The position numbers were made by a program, and so were the translations under genes. The notes beneath the pieces were generated by a model. The model was not told the origin of the DNA and did no database searches. It saw nothing but the letters and a program-made list of their open reading frames with translations. Of a stretch of DNA of 64,000 bases, positions 26,303 through 46,933 are shown piece after piece. This stretch comes from Escherichia phage EcS1. How positions within the stretch are numbered: the first letter of the stretch is position 1; each line of letters starts with the position of its first letter. The DNA lies in the sequence record NC_055721.1; one strand, given 5' to 3'.

Positions 26303-26683
26303 TTATTCCAACGAAAGCAAATATTTCGTTTGGTAACATACGCCTACGATCTCATCGACCGTGTTCTGGATAGCGGATGGTAACGTTTTGTGAATAGTGT
26401 TGGATTCATTTACTATCATGTCCAACATCTTGATTGTGTCAGTCGGGAATGCAGGTTGAGGTGCAGGCACGAATTTTTTGCCACTGAATCCTAACCATTG
26501 TTCGCCAAACTTGTCGGTTAACTCTGGGATTTCACTAAAGAACTTATCATAAGCTTTATGTCTTGAATAGTTCTTAGTTTCGAAATGTGCTGAATGGAAG
26601 TATGATGCTGAAGCAAGCAAAAGACTAATATATGAATCAGCTGGTTCTACTTTCCCATCCTTTATGAACTCATTAAATTTCAT
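26303..26683 (-). CDS. hypothetical protein
   Basis: 126 aa; N-terminus MKFNEFIKDG weakly resembles a capsid targeting sequence. Confidence 0.45.
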   Translation of the reverse strand: MKFNEFIKDGKVEPADSYISLLLASASYFHSAHFETKNYSRHKAYDKFFSEIPELTDKFGEQWLGFSGKKFVPAPQPAFPTDTIKMLDMIVNESNTIHKTLPSAIQNTVDEIVGVCYQTKYLLSLE

Positions 26684-32951: not shown

Positions 32952-33401
32952 TTACATATCTACCAATTTGCCGTTTTTAACTCGCATAACTTTAGCGGCT
33001 AATTTATTAGTTGGATTTTTCTGACGGACAATAGATGCTAAGCTATTAGCTGCTGTTTTAGCTGCGGCATAATCGTCATACCAATCACGACCAGTTTTAA
33101 TACGCTTAGTTCCTTTGTCTACTGTAACAATCCATTGAGATTGATCATTAGGGTCCATTTCTATGCGAATATCACCACCTGATACTAAACCAGATTGGAC
33201 CTTAGTAGGTTTGTTAGGGACAGTACCACCTAATGCTTTCGCCGCCTTTACAGCATCTTCATAACTCAGCCCAGCTTCAATAGTTTCAGCCTTGCGTCCT
33301 TTGCCACGATTAACATTAAAGGTTGTACCCCATCCAGGAACAATTTCAATATCCATTTCATGTTTTGCCGCTTCAGCTATAAATTCTTGATAAGTTTTCA
33401 T
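32952..33401 (-). CDS. internal (capsid-packaged) protein, IPII/IPIII-like
   Basis: 149 aa; N-terminus MKTYQEFIAEA is the T4 capsid targeting sequence with gp21 cleavage context; adjacent to denV as in T4. Confidence 0.6.
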   Translation of the reverse strand: MKTYQEFIAEAAKHEMDIEIVPGWGTTFNVNRGKGRKAETIEAGLSYEDAVKAAKALGGTVPNKPTKVQSGLVSGGDIRIEMDPNDQSQWIVTVDKGTKRIKTGRDWYDDYAAAKTAANSLASIVRQKNPTNKLAAKVMRVKNGKLVDM

Positions 33402-39162: not shown

Positions 39163-39190
39163 GAAAGGGACCGCTAGGGTCCCTTCTTTT
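39163..39190. terminator. GC-rich hairpin, terminator-like
   Basis: AAGGGACC-GCTA-GGTCCCTT stem with T-run on the plus side; lies just downstream of the minus-strand IP-like gene. Confidence 0.4.
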
Positions 39191-39794
39191 ATTTACGTGA
39201 TTTTTCGTAACGAGCAGCGTCAGCAGCCAGAGTACCAGCGTTGCGAAGCTTATTGCTGATTTCTTTATGCAGAGGCTGAGTATAACGCAAACTTTCAATT
39301 GTTAGATACAGATTGTAAAGGTCTGGAGTTTCAAGGTTGTTCATGTGTTGATTATTACGCAGCTTAGCATATTCACGAACCAGAACGTTAGTTTCACTTT
39401 CAATCTCATTAATCAGTGAAGATAATTGCTTATACTTTTTAACTAATGAAGAAGTATCAAAGTTAAACTTAGGTCCTGCAACTGGTTTAGGAGCTGGCTT
39501 TGCGGCCGCAGGCTTAGGAGCCACAACTGGTTTAGCAACAGGAGCAGACTTAGGTGCTGGAGTTGCTTTTGGAGTTGCTTTAGCAGTACCGCCACCAGCT
39601 ACGATATCTTTAAACGCTTTAGATGCTTTATAATAGTCTTTTTGACTATCAGTACTAAAGCCATACATGTCTTTCACTGCTTTAAAGAACTCTGTAGTGG
39701 TTTTAGTTCCTTTAATCGAATCATAAGCAGCTTGCCACTTGTCTTTAGTCATACGCTCAGTAGCTTCTGAGATGAATTCTTTGAATTTTAACAT
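39189..39794 (-). CDS. internal-protein-like with capsid targeting sequence and Pro/Ala-rich linker
   Basis: 201 aa; N-terminus MLKFKEFISEA (CTS-like); central PA/K-rich low-complexity region. Confidence 0.55.
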   Translation of the reverse strand: MLKFKEFISEATERMTKDKWQAAYDSIKGTKTTTEFFKAVKDMYGFSTDSQKDYYKASKAFKDIVAGGGTAKATPKATPAPKSAPVAKPVVAPKPAAAKPAPKPVAGPKFNFDTSSLVKKYKQLSSLINEIESETNVLVREYAKLRNNQHMNNLETPDLYNLYLTIESLRYTQPLHKEISNKLRNAGTLAADAARYEKSRK

Positions 39795-40119
39795 TTTTGG
39801 TTCCTTTGAATATGAATTAGGTTTATTTTATATTTATCATATTCGTCCAGTGCGCACCGCTTGCTCAGATAGCCCGAAAGGGTCCCACCGAAGTAGAACC
39901 CTTTCAGAAGAATTGACAGCACTACCCACTTGCGGATAGCCTGCAAATGTTCATTTTATTATGCTCGTAGAGGCAAGTCTCACATAATAAAACATAGCGT
40001 CAGGAGGTGTCACTTTGCAGGTGATTAACAACTATGCTCATCCTCGGATAGAACATAGCAACGTAAACGTTCTCTTCTAGACTGACGTCTTATCGTAGGG
40101 TTGCAGCCCTAAACGAAAT

Positions 40120-40195
40120 TGGTGCTGAATGCAGGAATCGAACCCGCGACCTTCTCATTACAAGTGAGCTGCTCTACCTACTGAGCTAATTCAGC
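40120..40195 (-). tRNA. tRNA-Thr (anticodon UGU)
   Basis: 76 nt; perfect 7-bp acceptor stem, canonical D and T arms (TTCGATT), anticodon loop CTTGTAA, encoded CCA. Confidence 0.8.
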
Positions 40196-42951: not shown

Positions 42952-43262
42952 GTTGATTGTACGGAACGCCTGGATTCGAACCAGGTTACAAAGCAGTTGA
43001 CGCTCCTTTGTATTTTGTAAGGCCATCATCTCGACCATATCCGAACGTTTCGTCAAAAACGCTACTCGGCTTATGGCAAAGACAAATCCTCGAACCGATA
43101 ATTGGTGGGAGCTGTTGGTAACGATCCAACCTCTCGAGCTCTTCAGGCAAGCGCTAATCCGTCTCAGCTAAACTCCCAGATCCACAAGAACTTTACAAGC
43201 ATTGCGCTTAACCTTTTCAGGAAGTTAGGGTACTATTTCTAGTCTGTGGTTATCCCTATTTT
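42952..43262 (-). ncRNA. structured non-coding region inside tRNA cluster (tRNA-like fragments)
   Basis: contains a canonical T arm CCTGG-TTCGAAT-CCAGG at about 42967-42985 and several hairpins but no complete cloverleaf was found by eye. Confidence 0.25.

Positions 43263-46021: not shown

Positions 46022-46933
<912 letters not shown>

Follow-up and report, generated by a model that had tools for sequence, protein, structure and literature searches.

The internal proteins (IPs) of phage T4 are the closest known counterparts of the gene product analyzed here. Mutations of their N-terminal tag, or capsid targeting sequence (CTS), assigned capsid targeting to residues 4 and 7 and processing to residues 8 and 10 (PMC9026906). 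The first 10 residues of T4 IPIII suffice to load foreign proteins, which stay in the head (PMC9026906). T4 Ip1, Ip2 and Ip3 are injected, and each inhibits a distinct GmrSD restriction enzyme (PMC12373910), which makes further CTS-tagged proteins prime candidates for counter-defence.

A stretch of 64,000 nucleotides from Escherichia phage EcS1 (accession number, NC_055721.1; Tevenvirinae, genus Kagamiyamavirus), referred to below as the window, contains on its minus strand a real, well-defined and uncharacterised gene of this kind. Its ORF (39189..39794; 201 aa plus stop, ATG start) was intact in both the ORF list and the sequence, and was 100% identical to the hypothetical protein KNT65_gp149 of Escherichia phage EcS1, hereafter gp149. 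The protein was matched by PHROG 2280 (function unknown) with an E-value of 3.4e-53, residues 1-196 being aligned with profile positions 1-178 of 178. A Pfam search of gp149 gave nothing above the cut-off; sequence searches of Pfam, NCBIfam and PDB with gp149 and with a profile of its C-terminal domain returned sub-threshold, compositional or coiled-coil matches only, and fold searches returned generic helical-bundle matches only, with no function supported by homology. After removal of the tag, the predicted mature protein has 191 aa, a mass of 21.2 kDa, a pI of 9.75 and a net charge of +14, and is thus small and basic, as are the CTS-targeted internal proteins. Judged by its sequence, gp149 appears to belong to the known CTS-tagged internal proteins of the T4 type, among which its architecture is new, and it is a candidate for an injected protein. 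The features of the gene and its surroundings, each with its basis, were as follows.

39189..39794, minus strand: complete CDS of EcS1 gp149, PHROG 2280 (ORF list, sequence, identity to KNT65_gp149)
39765..39794, minus strand: capsid-targeting-sequence-like propeptide, residues 1-10 (MLKFKEFISE), predicted cut after Glu10 (comparison with T4 IPs)
39597..39764, minus strand: N-module, residues 11-66, three predicted helices, pI 9.2 (AF2)
39468..39596, minus strand: disordered cationic Pro/Ala/Lys tether, residues 67-109 (composition, pLDDT)
39558..39581, minus strand: perfect 12-nt tandem duplication within the tether, KATP KATP (Tandem Repeats Finder)
39192..39467, minus strand: C-module, residues 110-201, predicted antiparallel three-helix bundle (AF2, alignments)
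39801..39806, minus strand: ribosome-binding site AAGGAA, 7-12 nt upstream of the ATG (sequence)
39831..39838, minus strand: GATAAATA, the T4 late promoter TATAAATA with one mismatch, starting 44 nt upstream of the ATG (sequence)
39876..39905, minus strand: G+C-rich hairpin GAAAGGGTTCTACTTCGGTGGGACCCTTTC, just upstream of the promoter-like site (sequence, conservation)
39165..39185, no strand assigned: terminator-like hairpin directly after the stop codon (promoter/terminator scan and sequence)

The initial annotation placed a CTS at the N-terminus of this protein, and residues 1-10 agreed with the T4 tag at every position to which a function has been mapped (F4, F7, I8 and E10, with Ala11 next). 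The N-terminus MLKFKEFISE↓A (the arrow marks the cut) matches MKTYQEFIAE↓A of T4 IPII and IPIII, and T4 IPI starts with MKTFKEF; positions 4 and 7 are aromatic or hydrophobic in gp149 (F4/F7) as they are in T4 IPIII (Y4/F7) and T4 IPI (F4/F7). The motif of the prohead protease (gp21), L/I-x-E followed by a small residue, is present as I8-S9-E10↓A11, where the cut is predicted. The pattern M-x-x-[FY]-x-[ED]-[FI]-[LIV]-x-E was kept in every family member, in most cases with another [LI]-x-E-[AS] site behind it; one or two L/I-x-E sites were present in the relatives (e.g., EFLNE↓S..VLNE↓A). The tag was the most constant feature of the family, and was retained even where the N-module was replaced or only 24-36% identical. 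Additional internal gp21 sites separating the modules were considered and rejected, because the EcS1-type sequence has no conserved L/I-x-E outside the structured helices.

The gp149 gene lies within a variable region that holds other CTS ORFs. An ORF of 149 aa (32952-33401, minus strand) with the near-canonical CTS MKTYQEFIAEA is located immediately downstream of the denV homologue and beside the lysozyme gene, near the position where T4 has ipII and ipIII. Another ORF, of 70 aa (46022-46234, minus strand; phrog_23867), also with a near-canonical CTS, follows the 57B homologue directly, at the position of ipI in T4. In a tblastn search of the T4 IPs against the window, neither ORF had homology to T4 IPI, IPII or IPIII past the tag. 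A third ORF, of 126 aa (26303-26683, minus strand), has a weaker CTS-like start, MKFNEFIKDG, with Asp for Glu at position 10; in T4 IPIII, Asp at this position was reported to allow targeting and to block processing (PMC9026906).

Behind the tag, the initial annotation described an N-terminal domain of roughly 70 aa, about 40 residues of PA/K-rich low-complexity sequence and a helical C-terminal domain. The N-terminal domain was recovered by AF2 modelling at a smaller size, about 56 aa (residues 11-66; helices 17-26, 33-44 and 51-66; pLDDT about 80-86). The low-complexity string that had been quoted, TPKATPAPKSAPVAKPVVAPKPAAAKPAPKPVAGPK, was present exactly in the gp149 translation, and the stretch was delimited as a tether of 43 aa (residues 67-109) comprising 11 P, 12 A and 8 K with no acidic residue and with Lys every 4-6 residues; in its core (residues 75-109), 28 of the 35 residues are P, A or K, and the net charge is +8. 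Disorder was predicted by a pLDDT below 50 across residues 68-103 (AF2). The helical C-terminal domain (residues 110-201), modelled alone by AF2, gave three helices (6-37, 48-61 and 64-91 in domain numbering) with a pLDDT of 94.3 and a pTM of 0.74. In alignments it was the best-conserved part of the protein within its type, with invariant NNL-TP-LY-LYL and YTQP.

The P/A/K run is far beyond chance. When 35-aa windows were compared among 80 long ORFs on the same strand, it was an outlier with 28/35 against a background of 17.7% P+A+K, and the runner-up window held 15. Tandem Repeats Finder detected within the tether a repeat of period 12 with 2.0 copies and a 100% match (KATPKATP). Every full-length relative has a P/A/K/V-rich tether, 9-44 aa long and with a net charge of +2 to +9, whose sequence is not alignable in detail; the family-wide composition of the tether is 30% P, 26% A and 23% K, with a Lys spacing of 4-6 and almost no KK.

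In a tblastn search for homologues, gp149 was matched in 142 phage records, and in 123 of these a single piece spans at least 80% of the protein. When 1.84 billion representatives were searched exhaustively with a profile, 15 clusters were obtained, all of them phage-like and none containing a T4 protein; a second, word-indexed homologue search with alignment gave no additions and was probably swamped by low-complexity words. The members were found in phages of Escherichia, Serratia, Erwinia, Enterobacter, Klebsiella and Yersinia, and the family is small, accessory and narrow. Yersinia phage fHe-Yen9-01 carries the gene, and its relative phiR1-RT is without a member at the gp149 slot. The orthologues of Serratia phage CHI14 and Erwinia phage Vettismorki are collinear with gp149 and about 96% identical. 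In some genomes the copies are truncated, either as two pieces or as C-terminal fragments (H51, H52; P0019, P0023).

A point absent from the initial annotation is that this family is mosaic, with the linker as the joint between independently exchanged modules. Compared with EcS1, the two modules of its relatives gave the following identities.

P0002: N-module 36%, C-module 98%
JS98 group: N-module about 85%, C-module about 68%
P0025 (Klebsiella Jiaodavirus; Enterobacter phages Q7622 and CIP9): N-module about 50%, unrelated C-domain at the same slot
P0028 (Serratia phage 92A1): N-module 41%, a third, unrelated C-domain at the same slot

In relatives with other C-domains, PHROG 2280 was matched only by the N-terminal half. 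The alternative C-domains (P0025, P0028 and others) gave no Pfam match, no PHROG function and no recognisable toxin or enzyme domain. Between EcS1 (Kagamiyamavirus) and CHI14 (Winklervirus), the DNA of the whole gene is 96.4% identical, compared with 82.0% for the neighbouring e.6-like gene. The C-module DNA differs at 1 position in 276 nt (99.6% identical), and most of the differences in the gene fall in the tether (14 in 129 nt, corresponding to 6 of 43 aa). Just outside the bounding hairpins, the DNA identity to CHI14 and Vettismorki collapses. These sequence comparisons show that N- and C-modules have been exchanged independently across an always-cationic tether; the module-wise identities, together with the differences between EcS1 and CHI14, point to the tether as the recombination joint, and the C-module looks recently mobile.

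The first CDS to follow the tRNA cluster is the gp149 gene, with homologues of e.8 and e.6 after it. The same slot holds a family member in JS98 (orf135), Q7622, EnC15, ValerieMcCarty04, CHI14 and Vettismorki; in T4, rnaC and rnaD are present at this position, between the tRNA cluster and e.8, with no family gene. In JS98, EnC15 and ValerieMcCarty04, the start codon of the family member is preceded at 36-39 nt by an exact TATAAATA, each time after a G+C-rich hairpin, and GATAAATA, with its one mismatch, was found at -43 to -45 in EcS1, Q7622, CHI14 and Vettismorki, again each time after a hairpin. This promoter-like context suggests that gp149 may be expressed late; the T4 ip genes themselves have early-type promoters upstream. 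The upstream hairpin GAAAGGGTTCTACTTCGGTGGGACCCTTTC bounds the expression cassette; it is conserved with Q7622, CHI14 and Vettismorki, and analogous hairpins are present in JS98, EnC15 and ValerieMcCarty04.

The leader from the hairpin to the gene (39795-39905, minus strand; GGGA..CCTTTCGGG.TATCTGAGCAAGCGGTGCGC ... CGAATATGATAAATATAA..AACCTATTCATATTC.AAGGAA) is nearly identical in Enterobacter phage Q7622 (Kanagawavirus; L004:2390-2500). Behind the near-identical leaders, the proteins of Q7622 and EcS1 have about 41% identity in the N-module and unrelated C-domains. Conservation of the leader despite divergence of the proteins suggests that hairpin and leader form a regulatory cassette that is conserved or mobile.

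A non-coding block of about 220 nt (39868-40085, minus strand) lies between tRNA-Thr (40120-40195) and the gp149 promoter; conserved counterparts are present in Enterobacter phage EnC15 (L005:2228-2462) and in Klebsiella phage ValerieMcCarty04 (L006:1225-1462). With these three sequences only, RNAalifold predicted 54 pairs in the block, 14 of them with compensatory double changes, and the clearest hairpin has a conserved loop GAGACTnnnnCTnCGAG on a fully covarying stem. The covariation suggests that the block probably encodes an RNA of stable structure, which would be produced together with the tRNA cluster and is placed where T4 has rnaC and rnaD. Homology of the block to T4 rnaC/rnaD was rejected, since blastn found no similarity between them and no Rfam family was matched. 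Within the conserved block of ValerieMcCarty04, a 57-aa ORF is annotated as 'vertex head subunit' (VMC04_132; L006:1061-1234); it has low-confidence peptide matches only in published virion data (E-values 2.5-3.0) and has probably been annotated in error across the region of the structured RNA. A segment of the EcS1 cluster of 17 tRNA genes, at 43106-43177 (minus strand), scored 36 bits with the Rfam tRNA model (gathering score 29) and was not called by ARAGORN; the cluster may thus hold an 18th tRNA of divergent sequence, or the segment may be a pseudo-tRNA.

The explanation that we favour, tentatively and with a confidence that falls a little short of an even chance, is that gp149 is a late-made, CTS-loaded and protease-trimmed internal protein that is injected with the DNA and has the C-module as its effector. 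The gene would be transcribed late, the 10-residue CTS would direct the product into the prohead core, and a prohead protease of the gp21 type would cut after Glu10 to leave a basic protein of 21 kDa with a net charge of +14. The mature protein would lie among the packaged DNA and would exit via the tail with the DNA at infection; its description in the initial annotation as an injected protein is what the tag would predict. CTS, N-module and tether would together serve as a conserved chassis for loading and DNA-riding, and the basic N-module and tether could plausibly lie on DNA; the association with DNA that had been suggested is plausible from charge alone. The C-module would be the part that does the work and can be exchanged, and most likely it binds or inhibits some host factor as infection begins; this likely effector role is drawn from the analogy with T4 Ip1-3 and GmrSD and from the domain swapping. 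From the helix lengths, two narrow helical bundles (56 and 92 aa) on a tether of about 40 residues could pass the tail channel in series. Packaging, cleavage, injection and an anti-defence role are thus what we infer for gp149. In favour of this explanation are the agreement of the CTS with the T4 tag, the late-promoter motifs, a size and charge like those of processed T4 IPIII, the location in a region with other CTS ORFs, the narrow accessory distribution, the mosaic structure and the precedent of T4 Ip1-3. Against it, the EcS1 promoter is one mismatch off the consensus, the C-module shows good conservation within its type and is not hypervariable, the fold searches supported no function, and a virion proteome of a relative, described next, gave a negative result.

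Virion mass spectrometry of CsCl-purified particles has been published for the Klebsiella phages ValerieMcCarty03/04 (PMC13119998). The family member of ValerieMcCarty04, VMC04_131 (WKM80661.1), is a distant Jiaodavirus relative of gp149, with a tag one residue shorter and a different (C2-type) C-domain. Among the matches listed in that source, it had zero peptide matches, with neighbouring accessions present, and none of its predicted peptides was among the peptides listed (PMC13119998). In the same data, two CTS proteins of ValerieMcCarty04 were detected, gp118 (an IPII homologue, MKTYKEFITE..) with 26 matches and gp119 (MKTYQEFLNE..) with 66, in a virion proteome of 135 proteins in all (PMC13119998), in which the peptide assignment looks loose. 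Because of the zero count for VMC04_131, our confidence that gp149 is packaged in the head was kept near the midpoint, and the count sustains the explanation considered next.

According to that explanation, gp149 would be a late protein that uses its CTS-like tag transiently or not at all and is absent from mature virions. It could be an accessory of the prohead core or of assembly, lost by expulsion or degradation at maturation, or a cytoplasmic protein with a vestigial N-terminus. Proteins of the scaffolding type often consist of helical bundles with flexible segments between them, and extra L/I-x-E motifs occur in the C-domain of VMC04_131. To these points is added the lack of listed peptides from the Jiaodavirus relative where the two other CTS proteins were detected (PMC13119998). 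The tag and cleavage motif are, however, conserved family-wide and more strongly than the adjacent domain, and the EcS1 protein itself is without a conserved internal L/I-x-E outside its structured helices. An accessory and patchy family would be unexpected for an assembly factor, and foreign proteins loaded by the first 10 residues of T4 IPIII stay in the head (PMC9026906). We regard absence from the mature virion as unlikely on balance.

Still less probable, though conceivable, is a purely physical role, in which gp149 would be a packaged histone-like protein whose Lys-studded tether and basic domains neutralise or organise the head DNA, or protect its ends on entry, without a specific host target. 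The net charge of +14 and the tether, with 8 Lys and no acidic residue in EcS1 and a net positive charge in every member, would suit such a role, and in H1 tails and AlgP-type proteins it is Lys/Pro/Ala repeats that bind DNA. The T4 internal proteins are likewise basic and have long been assumed to contact DNA (PMC9026906). A general packaging need is contradicted by the absence of the gene from most T4-like phages, including T4, and both the length (9-44 residues) and the charge (+2 to +9) of the tether vary. KK clusters of the H1 kind are lacking, families of the H1, Hc1, HU and AlgP types gave no Pfam or NCBIfam match to gp149, and bulk charge hardly accounts for the exchange of entire C-domains.

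The initial annotation also raised a possible membrane association. In an explanation of this kind, gp149 would be injected and would span the envelope or attach to a membrane, and its Pro-rich segment would serve as a periplasmic spacer like that of TonB. The best NCBIfam match of the tether, and its only family match, was the TonB proline-rich spacer, and about 40 extended residues could span roughly 10 nm; the match is compositional, confined to the spacer and far under threshold (16.8 bits against a cut-off of 315), and both domains look like soluble basic helical bundles. A Kyte-Doolittle scan of gp149 detected no hydrophobic or transmembrane segment (highest 19-residue mean, 0.25; GRAVY, -0.67), and membrane association was rejected on hydropathy, which leaves the envelope role very improbable. 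Fusion of two ORFs by a sequencing frameshift in the low-complexity region, named in the initial annotation as what would overturn its reading, has in its favour the few genomes with the gene in two pieces or as C-terminal fragments and the short tandem duplication in the region, but is refuted to the point of being negligible by the continuous frame in 123 of the 142 phage records from many laboratories and genera, by the collinear, 96% identical orthologues of CHI14 and Vettismorki, and by the recurrence of the three-part architecture with different modules.

Returning to the favoured reading of gp149 as an injected internal protein, the family provides a defined set of C-domains that alternate on a shared chassis at a single genomic slot and can be tested. 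If the reading is true, gp149 shows how a larger cargo, built as two narrow bundles on a tether, can still leave through the tail, a design that would help in turning T4-type heads into vehicles for protein delivery. Should the family prove not to be packaged, a good CTS match would be insufficient to predict a virion protein. A bolder proposal, possible but doubtful in our judgement, is a polymorphic injected-effector system, in which the chassis of tag, N-module and tether would be loaded into the head and ride in with the DNA, and the C-domains, swapped by recombination within the tether, would each disarm a different host defence, as a modular extension of Ip1-3/GmrSD.

Among the known systems, gp149 was most similar to T4 IPIII. 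The two share a near-identical N-terminal tag with an I/L-x-E↓A cut site and are encoded by non-essential accessory genes in the variable region of tRNA, e and 57B. Processed T4 IPIII (IPIII*) and the predicted mature gp149 have 183 and 191 aa, masses of 20.4 and 21.2 kDa, pI values of 9.65 and 9.75, and net charges of +10 and +14, respectively. A weak profile match joins IPIII to the first 25 residues of gp149, including (M/I)(T/N)KD.W. By hhalign against the T4 IPs, the alignment was restricted to residues 1-11 (IPII) or 1-26 (IPIII, probability 26%), and no homology to the T4 IPs was detected past about residue 25 of gp149, so that the mature part shows no significant similarity to them. 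The initial annotation had called gp149 unlike the compact T4 internal proteins; this holds for the architecture, as the T4 IPs are without a low-complexity tether and without a two-module build, but not for size and charge, which are those of IPIII*. The T4 ip genes are also located at different slots, whereas the gp149 gene lies between the tRNA cluster and e.8, and packaging and an anti-GmrSD role have been demonstrated for the T4 IPs, whereas we infer the corresponding properties of gp149.

The tether resembles the Pro/Ala(/Lys) spacers of TonB, of the lipoyl linkers of 2-oxo-acid dehydrogenase E2, of AlgP and of the KPAA/AKP tails of H1 in composition, predicted disorder and position between folded modules, a likeness that is compositional only, with scores far below the family cut-offs. 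TonB differs in its EP repeats and membrane anchor, both absent from gp149, and H1 differs in its KK clusters, which the gp149 tether does not have. The setting is different too, as the gp149 tether would be located within a phage head. In architecture, and not by homology, the gp149 family is also comparable with the CDI/Rhs toxins, in which a conserved N-terminal delivery part is joined to swappable C-terminal domains; at least three unrelated C-domains occur at the one slot of the gp149 family, and N- and C-modules have independent histories. The CDI/Rhs toxins are delivered by secretion systems, whereas the gp149 family would use the phage head. Lastly, modules of T4-type phages are shuffled by mobile regulatory cassettes (PMC2839356), and the gp149 cassette is similar to these in being bounded by hairpins and in having a leader conserved across genera.
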